Assembly (NCBI GenBank): GCA_000004695.1
Contig: CM000152.2
Location: 5,824,001 to 5,888,000, forward strand
Length of the DNA: 64,000 bases
DNA from: Dictyostelium discoideum
Lineage: Eukaryota
Direction: 5' to 3'
Part shown: positions 39,634 through 53,015 of the stretch, in pieces
Layout: each line of letters opens with the position of its first letter
How positions within the stretch are numbered: position 1 is the first letter of the stretch
The notes under the pieces: generated by a model
Told to the model about the DNA's origin: nothing
What the model saw: the letters and a program-made list of their open reading frames with translations, nothing else
Databases searched by the model: none
Made by a program: the position numbers and the translations under genes

Positions 39634-41572
39634 AAAAAATACATAAAATAAATTATTTCTCAAATTGTAAAAAAAAAAGATTCACATTTTAAATTTGCAA
39701 CACAAATGAAATAGGTTGTAAATTTCACTGCCTTTTTTATTCTTTTGTTTATTCAACACTACTATTTTATTATTTAGTTTTTTTTAATTGTTTTTTTAAT
39801 ATCAAATTAATTTTTCATTCCTCAAAAAATATTAAATTTATAATTCCTTCAGGATCAATACAAATACCATTTGAAGATGGAAGATGAACCACTTTCTCCA
39901 TCACACATTCTCGATACGTTGGTGAATAATAGTAATTTTAAAAAAGATTTTAATAATGACACAGCATTAGTGATTTAGAATTTTTAGCAATTGATGGTAA
40001 AGATGAAATAAAAATAAATAAAGATACTAAAATTTTATAAAAGTTAACTTTTGGGTACAATGAAAAGAGTGAATTAAGAATTCTTTTTTTTTGATAATTC
40101 AACAGACATTTTTGCTGATGCATGAAATTGTGTGATTAATTGGTCAACTGATTCTCTTTCATATATGTTAATTGATGATTCTTGTGTTGGAAAATACATT
40201 TCGTCAATAATTTTAAATGGTGGTGAGCGAGGTGATATAATTTCAAAAATTATTCAAATTGTTGAAAACCATTCATCTTTTATAAATGATTTTTATTCAT
40301 CTGGCAAAGAAATTGATAGTAGTAATATGATAAACTGTGTTAAATTATTGGCATATCAATTTGGTTCAATTCAAGGTGGAATAGATTCCAAAATTGTTAT
40401 TCAAAAATATAGATACAAGAACTGGAACCAATTGGTATATTTTAAACCAACTGGTAATATTAAAATTTTAAATGTCAATTAAATCAATCAAAAGGTTTTC
40501 AATTGGGATGGTTTTACAAATAAAGATAGTCAAGGGTATTTTTTAATTGGATCATCATATCTTGTAAAATAATGATATTGACAAGATAAAGAAATTAAAA
40601 CAAATAGAGAAATTATAAAAAAAAGAATATAATATACGAAGAAGATACTCGAGATTATGAAGATATCATTGATCCAGAAAACATAATTCAAGATGAAAAG
40701 GATCAAGATTATGATTATGATTAAATTACTGAAGAATCTAATTTTGAAGAAAATCAAATTTAATAAATAAATAAAAAAAATTATGATATACAACAATGAT
40801 TTGGTTTTAAATATATTGTTATTATATTTTGGACTATTGTCACATATGTAATATTATCGATTATCTAAACCTCGATATAAATTTAATAAACTCCAAATGT
40901 AAAATATACAGATAAAAAATTGAATTTATAAACAGGTAATAAAATATGGGATAAACAGGAAATTATATTAAGATCAAGTTCATTTATATAAATATTTTAA
41001 AATATGGAAATCATGACATTCCACTACGAATATGTGAGCTAACAATGTTATGAATTTGGTGAACGATAATCCTCTCCCATCACCGCTGAAAACTATATTG
41101 TCATTACTAATATTGTTCATTATTACTATTATTTATGTTTTATTTTACCTAATTATTTTTTTTTTTTTTATTTTTATTTTTTTTTTATTTTTTAAATTTA
41201 TTATTACGCACGATATTTGTTTTGATCAACTGCTATGTCACCAAATGTAATAACCACTGTTAATCTATTAATTACAGAATTATGTTATTAAGGTCTAAAC
41301 TTACTAAATGAATTACACACTACAAAGATTATGTTTTATAAATATGATGAATGATCGACCACTTTATTTAATGTTATTTTATGTGTATTTATACTCTTAT
41401 GTTTTATGCTAGCTAATCATTACTCGTTGCAATAGAACCTTCTAGAAAGCATGTTGATTCATTAAAGATATTTATTGATTACTTGAAAACCTTACGAAAC
41501 ATCGTAACCCTAACTTAACTATGTACGAAACCATGTTTTTTTTTTTTTTTTTTTTTGAATGTACGAAACCAT

Positions 41573-41897
41573 TTTTTTTTTTTTTGAATTGGATAACGCA
41601 ATTATTATTTGCTTCTCCTTGAGATGCTAGATCTCATTTTATTTTTTTTTTTTTTTTACAGGGTCTTTTTGATTAAAACATCTTTTTTGTCCAAACTTTT
41701 TTCTAAATCTTTTTTTATTTTATCGTCTGGTTCGTGATTGATGTTTATGACGTATTTGAATTGTTTTTTTTTTAATTGAGTTTTATCCACAATTTCGCTT
41801 ATTTTTTGTAGGCATTTGTGTTGCTTAATATTTGTGGTGTTGTTTGTGATTTTCATTTTATTTTCTTTCTATCTTTTTTATTTTTCTGATTAACTTG

Positions 41898-41939
<42 letters not shown>

Positions 41940-43645
41940 TTATAGAAAGTACTGAGTGAATTATTGTATTTTTTGAGATGTTTAGGAAGTTCTATTGCGG
42001 GTGTTGATGATGATTTGTGACACCCCTTGTCCTGTTTTATCAATTGGTGCGTGGTGTGTTATTTTGTTTTTATATTGTTGATTTATTGAGTAAATTTTAT
42101 TTGTTTTTATATTTGTTTCAGTTAGAAGTGCTGCGTCCAGCTTGTTGTTGTCTAAAACGGTGTTTATTATGCTGGCAGATTGGATGGTATTGGATCCTTG
42201 GACGTTCCAAACACCTATTCTTATTGTGTTTTTCTTTATAGTTTTATTTGGGGTAGATTTTTATCTACCTTTTGAAGTTTCTGGTTTATTTTGTCTTCTA
42301 ACTGATCTTTACTTTGTTCATTGTGTTGTTGGTCTTGTGTGTTTGTGGGGTTTTTTGATTTATTGATTTGTTTTAGAATTTCCTTGTTGAAGTTGTCTAT
42401 ATCTTCATCCATTTTTGTTTTTATGCTTTTTTGTCCATATTCACCCAATTTTGGTTTGACTGGTGTTTTGTTGGTCTTGTTTGTTTTGTCTTGTTGTTTC
42501 TTTTTTGGTGTGTTTAACAATTTACTTGGTGAATCGATAATTTTCGATGGTGTACCATAGGTTGGGCTGAAACTCATGATATGTTTTATTGGAGAGGAGA
42601 AGAACCATTGATTTGAAGGGATTGAAAGTGGGAATTCTATTTTTCTTATTGCATCAGTGTTTGGGCTGGTGAAGTCGAAGATATCATTTGCCTCTCTAAG
42701 TTTTTCTTCCGTTGTTAGTCCCTTTGTTTCGCCGTGTTGTTTTATTGGTGTATTGTATGGAGATGGTGGTTCGATAGGTTTTTCTGATTTTGTTTTAATT
42801 TCTTGATTGTTTATCGATTGGGTATTGATCTCATTCTCTATTCTTGTTAGTTCATCTACGTTTTCTAGTGATGCTTCTATTACCTTTTGAGCTGTATCAT
42901 CTAGGGCCATAAATGTTTTATCATTAGATGAGGATGTGATTGGTGGGATAATGATTGTTCTTTTTCCTTGTTTTGGTATTTGTTCTGATGTAGATTGTGG
43001 TTGTTGTTCATCTGATTGTTTTTTATTTTTGTTTTCTTCTTGATTTTCTGGTAATGAGGTTTGATCTCTCCATCCTTTGTTGGAGTGTCCAATTAATGTT
43101 AGATTGTCTAGTTCAATGATAGTGTCAAATTCTTCTACGACTCTTTTCACTGTTTTGATAATTAGAGTTTCGCCTTTAATTTCTGATTTAATTAGTTTAC
43201 ATCCTTCATTTTCTATTACCCATTCTATTTCATTGTGGTATTTATACCAATCAAAATCTCTGCATCTATTTTTTGGTCTTATAGTGGTTATAAATTGTCC
43301 TTTTAATTCTGCATCAAACATATTTACAAAATAGATTACTGTACTAATACTGTCTGTGAGAATTTTGAATGTATTATTACTTTTGATTAAAACATCTTTT
43401 TTGTCCAAACTTTTTTCTAAATCTTTTTTTATTTTATCGTCTGGTTCGTGATTGATGTTTATGACGTATTTGAATTGTTTTTTTTTTAATTGAGTTTTAT
43501 CCACAATTTCGCTTATTTTTTGTAGGCATTTGTGTTGCTTAATATTTGTGGTGTTGTTTGTGATTTTCATTTTATTTTCTTTCTATCTTTTTTATTTTTC
43601 TTTAAAAAGTTAAAAATCTGGAAATTTTCTAATTAACTTGGTTCC

Positions 43646-43689
<44 letters not shown>

Positions 43690-43955
43690 TCTTTTTTATA
43701 TGAAAAATGAAATAATCAAAAAAAGAGATTGTTGTTGTTGTTTGTTTTTTTCGATCTGATTATTTTTTGCTTTTTTTTTGAAAATTTTGCTACGCAAAAT
43801 TCTCAAAACGAAACAAATAATAAATTACAATAAAGTAAAAAGATGGCTTTTTAAAATAGTTTATTTATTTATTTATTTGTTTTTTAAGTCTTTTTTATAT
43901 GAAAAATGAAATAATCAAAAAAAGAGATTGTTGTTGTTGTTTGTTTTTTTCGATC
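41573..43955 (-). mobile_element. TRE5-A (DRE) non-LTR retrotransposon, ORF2-deleted form (TRE5-A.2-like). Element 5' end lies 52 bp upstream of tRNA-Val. Flanked by 16-bp target-site duplication gaatgtacgaaaccat.
   Basis: Minus-strand order: two tandem A-module copies (43689..43758 and 43878..43950 are near-identical); B-module; intact ORF1 (43570..42236); about 280 nt ending in the pre-3'-UTR sequence (…cgcaatagaacttcctaaacatctcaaaaaatacaataattcactcagtactttctataaata) with ORF2 missing; oligo(A); a 3' B-module copy including the first 66 codons of ORF1 (41856..41659); then the C-module terminus (…agaccctgt(A)n taaaatgagatctagcatctcaaggagaagcaaataataattgcgttatccaattc) and the final oligo(A) at 41573..41584. 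TSD copies at 41557..41572 and 43957..43972. Module assignments follow published TRE5-A architecture as recalled. Confidence 0.8.
42236..43570 (-). CDS. TRE5-A ORF1 protein (444 aa).
   Basis: Intact ORF MKITNNTTNIKQHKCLQKISEIVDKTQLKKKQFKYVININHEPDDKIKK…. The same N-terminal 60-66 aa recur at 41656..41856 and 45082..45264 as part of the 3' B-module copies of the two elements. Confidence 0.8.
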   Translation of the reverse strand: MKITNNTTNIKQHKCLQKISEIVDKTQLKKKQFKYVININHEPDDKIKKDLEKSLDKKDVLIKSNNTFKILTDSISTVIYFVNMFDAELKGQFITTIRPKNRCRDFDWYKYHNEIEWVIENEGCKLIKSEIKGETLIIKTVKRVVEEFDTIIELDNLTLIGHSNKGWRDQTSLPENQEENKNKKQSDEQQPQSTSEQIPKQGKRTIIIPPITSSSNDKTFMALDDTAQKVIEASLENVDELTRIENEINTQSINNQEIKTKSEKPIEPPSPYNTPIKQHGETKGLTTEEKLREANDIFDFTSPNTDAIRKIEFPLSIPSNQWFFSSPIKHIMSFSPTYGTPSKIIDSPSKLLNTPKKKQQDKTNKTNKTPVKPKLGEYGQKSIKTKMDEDIDNFNKEILKQINKSKNPTNTQDQQHNEQSKDQLEDKINQKLQKVDKNLPQIKL

Positions 43956-44007
43956 TCGAATGTACGAAACCATGTACTATGATTCATCACAAAAAAAATA
44001 TCAATAT

Positions 44008-44081
44008 GTTCGGATGGTGTAGTCGGTTATCACGAATCCTTAACACGGATTAGGTCGTGGGTTCGATTCCCGCTCTGAATA
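44008..44081 (+). tRNA. tRNA-Val (anticodon AAC).
   Basis: Cloverleaf: acceptor GTTCGGA/TCTGAAT+A. A-box GGTGTAGTCGG. Anticodon stem AATCC/GGATT with loop TTAACAC (U33, AAC, A37). T-arm GTGGG-TTCGATT-CCCGC (B-box GGTTCGATTCC). Terminator TTCTTTTT immediately 3'. Confidence 0.85.
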
Positions 44082-44113
44082 CTTCTTTTTAAAGAACCGA
44101 TTATAGATCGCAT

Positions 44114-44123
44114 GTTCGATTCC
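44114..44123 (+). promoter_or_regulatory. External B-box (ex-B, GTTCGATTCC) 33 bp downstream of the tRNA-Val at 44008.
   Basis: Exact B-box copy within gatcgcatgttcgattccctatttt. Extra downstream B-boxes are a known Dictyostelium tRNA-gene feature. Confidence 0.6.
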
Positions 44124-44880
44124 CTATTTTGATTATGGTGTTAAAAAATACAAAAAAAAAAAAAAAGAAAAGAAAAAAAAATTATGTAATAATAAAATTT
44201 GCTTTTATAAAATTTTTAATTAATTTAAAATAAACAAATTAAAATATATACATTTAATTTTTTTTTTTTTTTATTTTTAATTTTGAAAATTTCATTTCAT
44301 TTTATTTTTCTACAAATAAAATTAAATTTTTATTTACAATTTATTTGTTACTGTAATCCTGAATAACAATAAATAGGGGAAAAAATAATTTTTTAATTTG
44401 AATAGTCACTATTTTATTTATTTTGAAAAAAAAACTTAAATTTTTGTAATTTTGATAGTCAATAAATTGAGTGAATTAGTATATTAATAAACAATATCGA
44501 ATATTAAAACATCAAAAGAAAATAAATAAATAAATATCATTATCGTTAAAAAATAAAATTGTGTACAAATAAACGAGTATTTCAAATAATATTATTAAGA
44601 GATAAATTTTATATAAGTTTATTTTTAAAGTGTTCAAAGGGTCACATATTGTATTGATATACAAAATATTATAAATATTCCATATAAGTTGGAGTACGAG
44701 GATCTTTACAAATGTAATAAAGTTTGTTTTTAAAATTGAGAATAATAAATAATTCCAAATGGAATAATTTTATAAATTATGATTATATTTAATTAATACA
44801 TGTTTAATTATTATCTTTATATATTAGATTATCTCTTAATATTGTGTATTACTCGAGTTGATTGAATAAACTTCTAAAAT

Positions 44881-45013
44881 AAGTGTCTTTTTTTTGAATT
44901 GGATAACGCAATTATTAGTTGCTTCTCCTTGAGATGCTAGATCTCATTTTATTTTTAATTTTTTTTTTTATTTTTTTTTTTTACAGGGTCTCTAAAAGAG
45001 GGGTTAGTTTACT

Positions 45014-45052
<39 letters not shown>

Positions 45053-45340
45053 CGAATTTTGAATTGTATTATAACTTTTGATTAAAACATCTTTTTTGTC
45101 CAAATTTTTTCTAAATCTTTATTTATTTTATCGTCTGGTTCGTGATTGATGTTTATGACGTATTTGAATTGTTTTTTTTTTAATTGAGTTTTATCCACAA
45201 TTTCGCTTATTTTTTGTAGGCATTTGTGTTGCTTAATATTTGTGGTGTTGTTTGTGATTTTCATTTTATTTTCTTTCTATTTTTTATATTTTTCTTTAAA
45301 AAGTTAAAAATCTGGAAATTTTCTGATTAACTTGGGTTCC

Positions 45341-45403
<63 letters not shown>

Positions 45404-46080
45404 TTATGGAGAGTACTGAGTGAATTATTGTATTTTTTGAGATGTTTGGGAAGTGCTATTGCGTGAAGAGGTGAGTTCCATTGTCTGCTAAATTTTAATA
45501 GCTTTAGCGAGATTAATGAGTCTAATTTATTTTGTTCTTCTGGCCGTTGCTTTGATTTGATTCTTAATGTTTTGTTTATAACCGCTTGTGTCCTGTCCCA
45601 TGGAGCTCTTTGTGTTTTAATTAGTTCACGTATGACTTGTTGTCTATGAATTACTATTTCTATTTCATCGTGGATGAGTTTGTTTCTTTTGTGCCAAATT
45701 TTTTCGAATATAATAGCTATTAAATTGGCTATTAGTGCAATTTGTAGATGGTTTAAAATCTTAACATTCCAGGTGTGAGTGGTGTGTCCACACTTGATTA
45801 AGGTGTAGTTGAAGATTTCTTGTGTGTTTTTGATGTGGGCTTTGCAGTTGAAGAATATATGTTCTGAAGTCTCATCTTCCCCACACTGTTTGGCATGTTG
45901 CATATTTTTGGTAGTGCTTTCAGTGTGTATCTCCATAATAGGTCTCTACCTTTCATGTTTATTATTTTTTTAATTTCTATAAATGGAAGGTGTTTGCTAT
46001 TGATTTTGGTCATTATTTCTTTTTGGCCAGGAGTTGGTATGAATTTGTTGTGTTCTGGAGATTGGGTTGTCATCCTCGTA
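44881..46080 (-). mobile_element. TRE5-A, 5'-truncated within ORF2: ORF2 3' end, 3' B-module copy, C-module and oligo(A). Flanked by 16-bp TSD taaaataagtgtcttt. Truncated 5' end lies 47 bp upstream of the second tRNA-Val.
   Basis: TSD copies at 44865..44880 and 46081..46096. Minus-strand order: ORF2 C-terminal region with frameshift (46080..45400, zinc-knuckle-like …CGEDETSEHIFFNCKAH…); oligo(A) 45345..45400; B-module tail plus ORF1 first 60 codons (45264..45082); oligo(A); C-module terminus identical to that in element 1 (…gcgttatccaattc); terminal (A)9. Confidence 0.75.
45400..46080 (-). pseudogene. Truncated, frameshifted 3' portion of TRE5-A ORF2 (reverse-transcriptase C-terminal cysteine-rich region).
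   Basis: Two overlapping ORFs in different frames (45798..46073 and 45400..45936). C-x-C…H…C knuckle (…LPKICNMP… and …KQCGEDETSEHIFFNCKAHIK…) typical of the LINE ORF2 C-terminus. No start codon; the element is 5'-truncated. Confidence 0.7.
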
Positions 46081-46127
46081 TAAAATAAGTGTCTTTATTT
46101 ATTTCTTTAAAAAAAAAATATCAATAT

Positions 46128-46201
46128 GTTCGGATGGTGTAGTCGGTTATCACGAATCCTTAACACGGATTAGGTCGTGGGTTCGATTCCCGCTCTGAAT
46201 A
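46128..46201 (+). tRNA. tRNA-Val (anticodon AAC), second copy identical to 44008..44081.
   Basis: Identical 74-nt sequence. Same 17-bp upstream flank (aaaaaaaatatcaatat). Terminator TTCTTTTT. Same downstream spacer plus ex-B box. Confidence 0.85.
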
Positions 46202-46233
46202 CTTCTTTTTAAAGAACCTAATATAGATCGCAT

Positions 46234-46243
46234 GTTCGATTCC
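46234..46243 (+). promoter_or_regulatory. External B-box (GTTCGATTCC) 33 bp downstream of the second tRNA-Val.
   Basis: Same context as at 44114. Confidence 0.6.
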
Positions 46244-46256
46244 CTATTTATTCTTA

Positions 46257-46289
46257 TTAGGTCGTGGGTTCGATTCCCGCTCTGAATAC
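46257..46289 (+). other. Orphan tRNA-Val 3' half (nt 42-74, ttaggtcgtgggttcgattcccgctctgaatac) followed by a T-run. A third B-box-like GGGTTCGATTCC lies at about 46320..46331.
   Basis: Exact match to the 3' 33 nt of the tRNA at 46128. No 5' half, so non-functional as a tRNA. It does supply another B-box. Confidence 0.6.
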
Positions 46290-46597
46290 TTATTTTTCAA
46301 ATTTAAATTGTTAAATAGTGGGTTCGATTCCGATCATGTAAAAAAAACCTCTCTTCGCATCAAAAAACCAAATTATTTTTTTTAGAAATTTATCTTTTTT
46401 TTTAATTTTTTTTAATTAAAAAAAAAAATAACCCTAAAAAAACCAAGAATAAAATAGATTAGAAAACAAAAAAAAACTTTTTAAAAAAAAAAAATTGTGA
46501 GAATAAGAAATAATTTAGAAAATAAAAACAAATATTAATAAATATCACCAAGAGTCTATTTTTATTTTTTTATTTTTCATTAAAAAAACAATAAACG

Positions 46598-52256: not shown

Positions 52257-53015
52257 TTTTTTATTTTTTAATTTTTTTTTTTTAAAAAAATTTGTGTATA
52301 TGATGTGTAATTATTGTATAATGAAAAATAAATATTTATTCTATAATTATTTAATTATTGTAATGACCATGCTTTGTAAAAAAAAACATTAAAAACACAA
52401 AAAAAAAAAAAAAAATTAAAAAATAAAAATAAAAAAATAAATATTAAAAATTCGTTGTGGGTTATATATATAGTTTAAATGAATGGCTTATATGAATTAA
52501 AAAAAAAATTAATAAAAAAAAATAAAAATAAAAATAAAAAATAAAACAAAAAAAATAATAAAAAAAAAAAAAAAAATTTATTTTGAAATCGGTTGGCGGA
52601 AATCTTGAAATGTGAACAATTTCATTGAAAATGAAATTTTACAGATTTGAACAGAAAAAAAATAAAAAGGCATTATTAAAAACTAATCAGCAAAAGTCAG
52701 AAATACAACAAAGATAAAAAAAAAAAAAAAAAAAAAAAAAAGAAAAAAGTAAAAATTAATTCAAATAAATTGATTATATATTAGTAAATAACAATTATTT
52801 TAATATTTAAAAATAATAATAAAAAATATTTTATTAGAAAGAATTAAGTTAAAAAAAAAAAAAAAAAAAGTATACAATGAGTATTACCAATAAGTATTTT
52901 TTTTTTGGTTATGGAAAGTAAAATTTTTTTTGAATTGGTTGGCTATGGAAAGTAAAATAACACTTTAAAAAAAAAAAAAGTTATTTTCTGAAAAATGACA
53001 TTTGTTATTATTTAT

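Follow-up and report, generated by a model that had tools for sequence, protein, structure and literature searches.

The non-long-terminal-repeat (non-LTR) retrotransposon TRE5-A of Dictyostelium discoideum (formerly DRE) integrates upstream of transfer RNA (tRNA) genes, within a window of 47±3 bp and in a strict head-to-head orientation (PMC5391098). Some 80% of events fall inside this window, many independent events share exactly one position, 98 of 405 tRNA genes are occupied, and 91 of these 98 were re-targeted (Spaller et al. 2017, PMC5391098). The resulting TRE-TRE tandems follow a simple rule, in which newer copies land beside the tRNA gene and do not enter the older copy (Spaller et al. 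2017, PMC5391098). A new copy also lands above a resident TRE5-A.2 (Barth et al. 2022, PMC9012585). In this work we describe a 64-kb window of D. discoideum chromosome 3 (the whole stretch of DNA that was analysed; position 1 is its first base) with two adjacent tRNA-Val(AAC) genes. The sequence upstream of these genes is very probably best explained by three TRE5-A events. Two of them are stacked at gene 1, where the older would be truncated to about 2 nt and an A21 tail.

TRE5-A is modular. A 200-bp A-module is followed by a 290-bp B-module, which is duplicated into the 3′ untranslated region and holds the start of open reading frame 1 (ORF1) in its 5′ copy, and a C-module forms the 3′ end (PMC3159450; PMC5391098). 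TRE5-A.1 has the layout AB-ORF1/ORF2-BC, the non-autonomous TRE5-A.2 has the layout AB-ORF1-BC in about 2.4 kb, and TRE5-B and TRE5-C, unlike TRE5-A, are without the 3′ B-module (PMC3159450; PMC5391098). A single extra G is often seen at the 5′ end of TRE5-A, and 5′ truncation is typical (PMC3159450). The published range for its target-site duplications, which vary in length, is 10-16 bp, and published in vitro data suggest that the ORF1 protein contacts TFIIIB upstream of tRNA genes.

In Dictyostelium the tRNA gene sets the position of an insertion, therefore successive events stack at a single spot and can be put in order. This differs from mammalian L1. In L1 and other non-LTR retrotransposons severely 5′-truncated or poly(A)-only insertions occur, in which a target-site duplication encloses a tail that retains hardly any of the element's bases, or none, possibly with microhomology at the 5′ junction.

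The only tRNA genes found in the window by ARAGORN and Rfam are the two tRNA-Val(AAC) genes on the plus strand, gene 1 at 44008-44082 (57.9 bits in Rfam) and gene 2 at 46128-46202. Their 75-nt sequences are identical, as the first-pass annotation of this DNA had proposed, and their starts lie 2,120 bp apart. Upstream of gene 1 is a TRE5-A copy of 2,372 bp on the minus strand (copy 1, 41586-43957), and upstream of gene 2 a 5′-truncated copy of 1,185 bp, also on the minus strand (copy 2, 44896-46080). Both are head-to-head with their tRNA gene, with gaps of 50 and 47 nt, respectively, between the element's 5′ end and position +1. These distances agree with the 47-52 bp given earlier, except that the apparent 5′ end of copy 2 is a truncation point inside ORF2 and not the true start of an element.

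The gene 1 site carries three copies of one target. Copy 1 ends in a tail of 13 A (41573-41585; 14 with the ambiguous T at 41572), and it is flanked by a 16-bp duplication, gaatgtacgaaaccat, at 41557-41572 and 43958-43973. Directly upstream of the distal copy stand exactly 21 T (41536-41556), and beyond these a further copy of the target, atgtacgaaaccatg, at 41521-41535. The same 15-mer occurs at 43960-43974, where it overlaps the tRNA-proximal copy of the 16-mer, and the final g of the third copy (41535) equals the next base of the proximal target (43974). We interpret the T21 run as the minus-strand A21 tail of an older, extremely 5′-truncated insertion flanked by its own duplication. The whole body of this insertion would be ‘tc’ (plus-strand ‘ga’, 41557-41558), two bases that are either untemplated or the final 2 nt of the C-module (...ccaattc). 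Copy 2, with a tail of 5 A (44891-44895; up to 8 counting the terminal T's of the duplication), lies within a third duplication, taaaataagtgtcttt, at 44875-44890 and 46081-46096. The lengths are thus 16 bp for copies 1 and 2 and 15 bp for the older event (16 with an ambiguous T), and the tails are A13-14, A5 and A21.

The first-pass annotation had reported both 16-bp duplications and a third target copy beyond a T21 tract. All three stand, with two starts corrected: 43957 should be 43958 (off by 1) and 44865 should be 44875 (off by 10). The 16-mers are unique to their flanks in the window, e.g. TAAAATAAGTGTCTTT is found exactly at 44875 and 46081 and nowhere else. Chance matches would be a natural worry in this low-complexity, AT-rich DNA, since the window has a G+C content of 21% and abundant homopolymer runs, and an assembly artefact could produce the same picture. 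That said, the 14-mer ATGTACGAAACCAT has exactly three matches in the window (41521, 41559 and 43960), with no others at up to 2 mismatches, and none of 100 shuffles reached three matches even at 2 mismatches. An artefact is excluded because an independent D. discoideum assembly (GCA_054883475.1, 99.56% identity over 20.6 kb) has the four junctions base for base, including the lengths of the T21 and T14 runs. We consider chance or misassembly extremely improbable.

One further resemblance was noted beside these repeats. The window contains the rare 8-mer TACGAAAC at four places, of which three are the duplication copies and the other lies 31 bp further upstream, at 41493-41507. Here cttacgaaacatcgta can be compared with tgtacgaaaccatgta, and no A or T tract separates this site from the other copies. 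Possibly it is a fourth copy of the target, now degenerate, that stems from an even older event.

The rebuilt empty site at gene 1 reads ...ccctaacttaact|atgtacgaaaccatg|tactatgattcatcac...(tRNA), with the borders ...aact|atgtacgaaaccatg|tacta..., and two successive events account for every base of the present one. Their order is read directly: the tail-only insertion was already present when the TRE5-A.2 arrived, because ‘ga’ is found in both copies of the second duplication. The older remnant is also distal to the newer element, as the published rule for TRE-TRE tandems predicts, and its own 5′ junction was 48 nt from gene 1. The first-strand nicks fall after 43974/43975 for the first event and after 43972/43973 for the second, and the second-strand nicks are 2 nt apart. 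Two successive insertions at the same nucleotide had been claimed; the two events hold, but the cuts are offset by 1-3 nt, so that the same few bases were reused and not strictly one nucleotide. The ‘ga’ itself is also how ‘gaattgg...’ begins, which is the element end ‘...ccaattc’ in reverse complement, and the match grows to four bases if the ‘at’ of the target is included. This is compatible with microhomology-assisted joining of the 5′ end after extreme truncation.

The same bases can be read differently. The region has the form of tandem units, atgtacgaaaccat(g) + T21 + ga followed by atgtacgaaaccat + T13 + ga, and slippage is favoured in homopolymer-rich DNA. On this reading a TRE5-A.2 would have inserted only once and duplicated 14 bp of target (atgtacgaaaccat), and a local tandem duplication of about 38 bp (target, poly(T) and ga) at its 3′ junction would have come later, through replication slippage or unequal exchange. 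However, the g at 41535 must then be a mutation, yet it equals the next original target base at 43974, and the ‘ga’ at 43958-43959 must be untemplated and equal to the ‘ga’ of gaattgg by chance. Three extra 5′ bases (tcg) are also needed, compared with the single extra G that is often reported (PMC3159450). Finally, another locus with the same kind of structure, described below, has it on the tRNA-proximal side, about 900 bp from the tail of the older element, which a duplication at the 3′ junction cannot yield. We regard local duplication as very unlikely.

The bases at the 5′ junction of copy 1 deserve a comment here. The assignment of the ‘ga’ to the second duplication presupposes that the ‘tcg’ next to AGATCGAAAAAAAC is not templated. 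A comparison with the internal repeat of the A-module (...aatc|agatcgaaaaaaac) suggests that the templated 5′ end may be AGATCG, preceded by one extra G.

Three variants of the two-event history were rejected. A single event, with one reverse transcription and template switching, fails because a full target copy between two tails needs a second pair of nicks. The T21 insertion is not younger than the TRE5-A.2, because it lies 2.4 kb from the tRNA gene, outside the targeting window, and because its ‘ga’ is copied in the proximal duplication. The shortening of a once-longer older element by recombination is less simple, because both junctions of the remnant are intact and there is no homology that would allow a deletion exactly up to 2 nt before the tail. 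The first-pass annotation had the earlier copy ‘reduced’ to its poly(A) afterwards. With both remnant junctions intact, it was most likely 5′-truncated during integration.

Further evidence comes from five other TRE5-A loci in another D. discoideum assembly, none of them a full-length TRE5-A.1. In four of these TRE5-A lies about 47-50 nt from a tRNA gene in the same orientation, namely tRNA-Ile (locus L002), tRNA-Thr (L003) and tRNA-Leu (L004 and L017). At the fifth (L016) it starts about 68 nt from tRNA-Glu, judged by the start of the BLAST alignment. Most copies end in ...gcgttatccaattc followed by a run of A, with the variants ...gcgttattc (L003) and ccattc (L004), and then pass into unrelated flanks; both copies in the window end in ccaattc and a run of A. 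The segment 41536-41572 is therefore not internal element sequence, a doubt raised when the repeats were first noticed: copy 2 and the copies at all five other loci end in poly(A) beside unrelated flanks.

The most telling of these loci is L004. Here, 47 nt from a tRNA-Leu(CAA) gene, the sequence runs gggacaaccacatg + ccaattc + A23 + gggacaaccacatgg, then an older truncated copy (...ccattc A9) and then tgggacaaccaccagg. By its sequence the newer of the two copies is a tail-only insertion in which the canonical end ccaattc is preserved at 7 of 7 nt. It has a 14-bp duplication of a target already used by the older copy, the tiny copy being the newer one. At L003 a TRE5-A.2 with the duplication tcgaattcatgaaa immediately adjoins an older truncated copy at that copy's 5′ end. 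Because both loci show it, the serial use of one site is recurrent at natural loci.

These observations bear on the identity of the older insertion. Only ‘tc’ is left beside its tail, the C-module is also the end of TRE5-C (PMC3159450), and untemplated 5′ bases are frequent (PMC5391098). The first event might have been the insertion in trans, by the TRE5-A machinery, of a poly(A) end that came from a cellular mRNA or from another TRE family member such as TRE5-C, or it might have been an aborted reverse transcription with untemplated bases. Against this, the 2 nt agree with the end of TRE5-A, and the position 48 nt upstream, the orientation and the 15-bp duplication are all TRE5-A-like. Moreover, the L004 remnant has 7 of 7 nt of ccaattc, unlike the ccattc of the neighbouring older copy. 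A source other than TRE5-A is very unlikely in our opinion, and the 2 nt here together with the 7-nt analogue at L004 argue for a TRE5-A origin of the A21 remnant.

The proposed history involves three independent target-primed reverse transcription events by TRE5-A at the two adjacent tRNA-Val(AAC) genes on chromosome 3. On the model provided by the literature, the ORF1 protein would contact TFIIIB bound upstream of the tRNA gene, and the ORF2 endonuclease/reverse transcriptase would integrate the element about 47 bp upstream with its 5′ end toward the tRNA gene; we infer that the same targeting operated at this locus. In the first event at gene 1, a nick about 33 nt upstream of the tRNA gene would have allowed priming on the poly(A) tail. 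Reverse transcription would have stopped after about 2 nt (‘tc’), possibly joined through the ‘at’ microhomology, and left A21 + 2 nt inside a 15-bp duplication. In a later event a TRE5-A.2, which is without ORF2 and would have been mobilised in trans, may have entered the same window 1-3 nt away. This would duplicate gaatgtacgaaaccat, i.e. 2 nt of the first insert (‘ga’) and 14 nt of target (atgtacgaaaccat), and displace the older remnant by 2.4 kb to give a TRE-TRE tandem whose distal member is nearly all tail. The third event, at gene 2, would have placed a copy truncated inside ORF2 at 47 nt upstream of the tRNA gene, with a 16-bp duplication.

Compared with the tandems described before (PMC5391098, PMC9012585), this locus is alike in that the newer element occupies the same window of about 47 bp, with the older one displaced and uninterrupted. 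It differs in its older member, which at about 2 nt + A21 is unrecognisable without the flanking duplication.

Several points weigh against three TRE5-A events. The A21 remnant is tied to TRE5-A by 2 nt only (4 with the microhomology), and a polyadenylated RNA ending in ...TC, or untemplated bases, would look identical. The tandem arrangement of target, T-run and ga could formally arise by local duplication. Look-ups by way of the flanking genes recovered neither an intermediate (A21-only) nor an empty allele: the downstream FNIP gene led only to contigs of 1.3-1.6 kb that stop at the tRNA repeats, and the upstream gene of 180 aa led to the same allele in the second assembly and to short contigs ending before the site. 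A homologue search with the 180-aa protein found only itself, and so no orthologous locus in a sister species. The elements are assigned to their family by structure, by position and by comparison with the published description rather than by a curated TRE5-A reference, in whose place stand near-identical copies beside five other tRNA genes.

Much of what we describe is known biology. The TRE-TRE tandems, the window of 47±3 bp, the duplications of 10-16 bp and the re-targeting of occupied tRNA genes, these two included, have already been published. Truncation to a bare tail, which we did not find stated in the TRE5-A literature, is the logical extreme of a known process. Within 4.6 kb the locus shows three dated events at two tRNA genes; it is a clean textbook example, from a reference genome, of retrotransposition that is position-specific, and confirms at natural sites what experiments with tagged elements showed. 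Its value is therefore mainly illustrative, with little wider significance beyond the annotation of tail-only insertions.

Tentatively, and with more doubt than confidence, we suggest that tail-only TRE5-A insertions (0-7 element bases and poly(A) within a duplication) are a frequent, unannotated outcome of integration. If true, the regions upstream of Dictyostelium tRNA genes would be an ordered record of more integrations than repeat annotation shows, and marker-based assays could not see the tail-only events. Since such insertions escape repeat annotation, the natural counts of TRE5-A per tRNA gene (98 of 405 occupied) are minimum values, and the missed insertions could be retrieved by searching for a simple pattern.

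Two sites look like further cases. The first is in the window at 52905-52957, where, in minus-strand element sense, CCAATTC+A8 at 52924-52938 is the third exact match to a TRE5-A 3′ end with a tail (0.03 expected by chance). The sequence reads ttggttatggaaagtaaaa + T8 gaattgg + ttggctatggaaagtaaaa and resembles a tail-only insertion whose duplication spans 17-19 bp; an alternative reading is a tandem duplication with an 8-nt indel. Neither ARAGORN nor Rfam found a tRNA or other Rfam RNA within reach of it, and if it is a tail-only insertion it would suggest that some abortive events are not guided by tRNA genes. The second candidate is on the minus strand of L002 at 339-356, where CCAATTC + A11 follows 18 unrelated bases and has a 17-bp repeat (gggatcaaacaaattta) on either side. 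The only tRNA gene called in that locus, at 7893, is not near it, and the site may be a short insertion of C-module end and tail that is remote from tRNA genes.

Copy 1 is a TRE5-A.2 with an intact ORF1 and a deleted ORF2, because its layout, AB-ORF1-BC, is the published architecture. In the map obtained by comparing the window with itself using BLAST, read in plus-strand order, the body starts at 41586 (‘gaattggataacgc...’) with a shortened C-module (about 41586-41666), followed by the 3′ B-module (about 41667-41899), an A38 tract (41900-41937) and a remnant of the 3′ end of ORF2 of about 60-100 nt (about 41938-42000). ORF1 (42236-43570, 444 aa) encodes a multi-copy protein with 100% identity to DDB_G0282507 of Dictyostelium discoideum AX4. 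The 5′ B-module (about 43360-43649) and an A36 tract (43650-43685) follow, and the body ends at 43957 with about 1.35 A-modules of a 200-bp period (43686-43957). The period of 199-200 bp is evident at the 5′ extreme, where 43660-43757 matches 43860-43956. The start codon of ORF1 is inside the repeated B-module, thus one and the same N-terminus, MKITNNTTNIKQHK..., is encoded again by the 3′ B copies. A Pfam scan of the 444-aa protein found no family, and the ORF1 of TRE5-A has been described as without kinship to other ORF1 proteins (PMC3159450).

The self-comparison also ties the modules of the two copies together. A 221-bp block of the 3′ B-module (41667-41887) has 100% identity to 43381-43601 in the 5′ B-module and 98% to 45076-45295 in copy 2. 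The block 43360-43685 has 97.6% identity to 45054-45380, and the 3′ ends (41578-41658 and 44888-44970) have 96%.

The elements here resemble described TRE5-A in every essential respect, i.e. the position 47-50 nt upstream with the 5′ end toward the tRNA gene, the AB-ORF1(-ORF2)-BC modules with a 200-bp A, a duplicated B of about 290 bp and a C followed by poly(A), an ORF1 without a Pfam family, duplications within 10-16 bp and, where the 5′ end is full-length, what is probably one extra G. The only departures are the 1.35 A-modules and the shortened C-module of copy 1, and these are subfamily traits, because the TRE5-A.2 beside tRNA-Thr at L003 has both. It has 99.2% identity to copy 1 over 2,380 bp. 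In L003 (5909-6198) as in copy 1 there are about 1.35 tandem A-modules, and the C-module is cut to about 80 bp and joins the B-module at ‘acagggtct|ttttgattaaaac’. These features look like markers of one young TRE5-A.2 lineage.

Copy 2 is a 5′-truncated derivative of TRE5-A.1 that consists of the end of ORF2, a B-module and a C-module. In plus-strand order the C-module (about 44896-45014) is followed by an A38 tract (45015-45052), a B-module of 291 bp (45054-45344), an A57 tract (45345-45401) and the last 680 bp or so of ORF2, which reach up to 46080. The B- and C-modules have 96-98% identity to those of copy 1. The ORF2 fragment covers the zinc-finger region and contains a frameshift, therefore copy 2 is the older-looking of the two elements. 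Of the endonuclease, reverse transcriptase and zinc-finger-like domains of a TRE5-A ORF2, this C-terminal region is all that copy 2 retains. The fragment matches multi-copy D. discoideum proteins with a UniRef name beginning ‘Reverse transcriptase z...’, and homology to the protein P0008 (MTTQSPEHNKF... compared with MTNQFPEHNKF...) extends to the very 5′ end of the copy. Pfam scans of the ORF2 fragments gave nothing useful.

The two tRNA-Val loci have published counterparts. Table S2 of Spaller et al. 2017 (PMC5391098) lists ValAAC-14 at 5868008-5868081 and ValAAC-15 at 5870128-5870201 of chromosome 3, and because the chromosome and the spacing of 2,120 bp agree, gene 1 would be ValAAC-14 and gene 2 ValAAC-15. 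On the same grounds the window most likely spans about 5,824,001-5,888,000 of that chromosome. The de novo integrations in its three count columns are 107/273/10 for ValAAC-14 and 14/461/10 for ValAAC-15 (Spaller et al. 2017, PMC5391098), hence these genes themselves have been re-targeted experimentally, as in the known tandems. The unit common to the two loci is only 139 bp, from -17 to +122 (43991-44129 and 46111-46249, 98.6% identity).

Some minor observations concern the surroundings of tRNA genes and the structure of the elements. A scan for B-boxes found additional B-box-like motifs (GTTCGATTCC) downstream of both tRNA-Val genes, at 44114-44123 and 46234-46243. Gene 2 is followed in addition by 42-46 nt that repeat the 3′ half of the tRNA (46256-46301) and by a further B-box (46322-46331), so that locus 1 has two B-boxes in total and locus 2 has four. 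In L017, at 10780-11030 and a short way downstream of another tRNA-Val(AAC) gene, several short fragments of the C-module end (…ataattgcgttatc, …gcgttatccaatt and gcgttatccaattc + A15) alternate with ‘T12-13 acct...’ sequences. After the last tail comes ‘tataggtttttt’, a match to the 5′ flank of the TRE5-A at a tRNA-Leu gene 3 kb away, and the whole appears to be a composite or interrupted element. Lastly, the long internal A tracts of the two copies in the window (36-57 nt in element sense; 41900-41937, 43650-43685, 45015-45052 and 45345-45401) coincide exactly with borders between modules, namely A|B, ORF2|B and B|C. The modules look like tail-ending units, as if the composite untranslated regions arose by template switching or serial retro-insertion.

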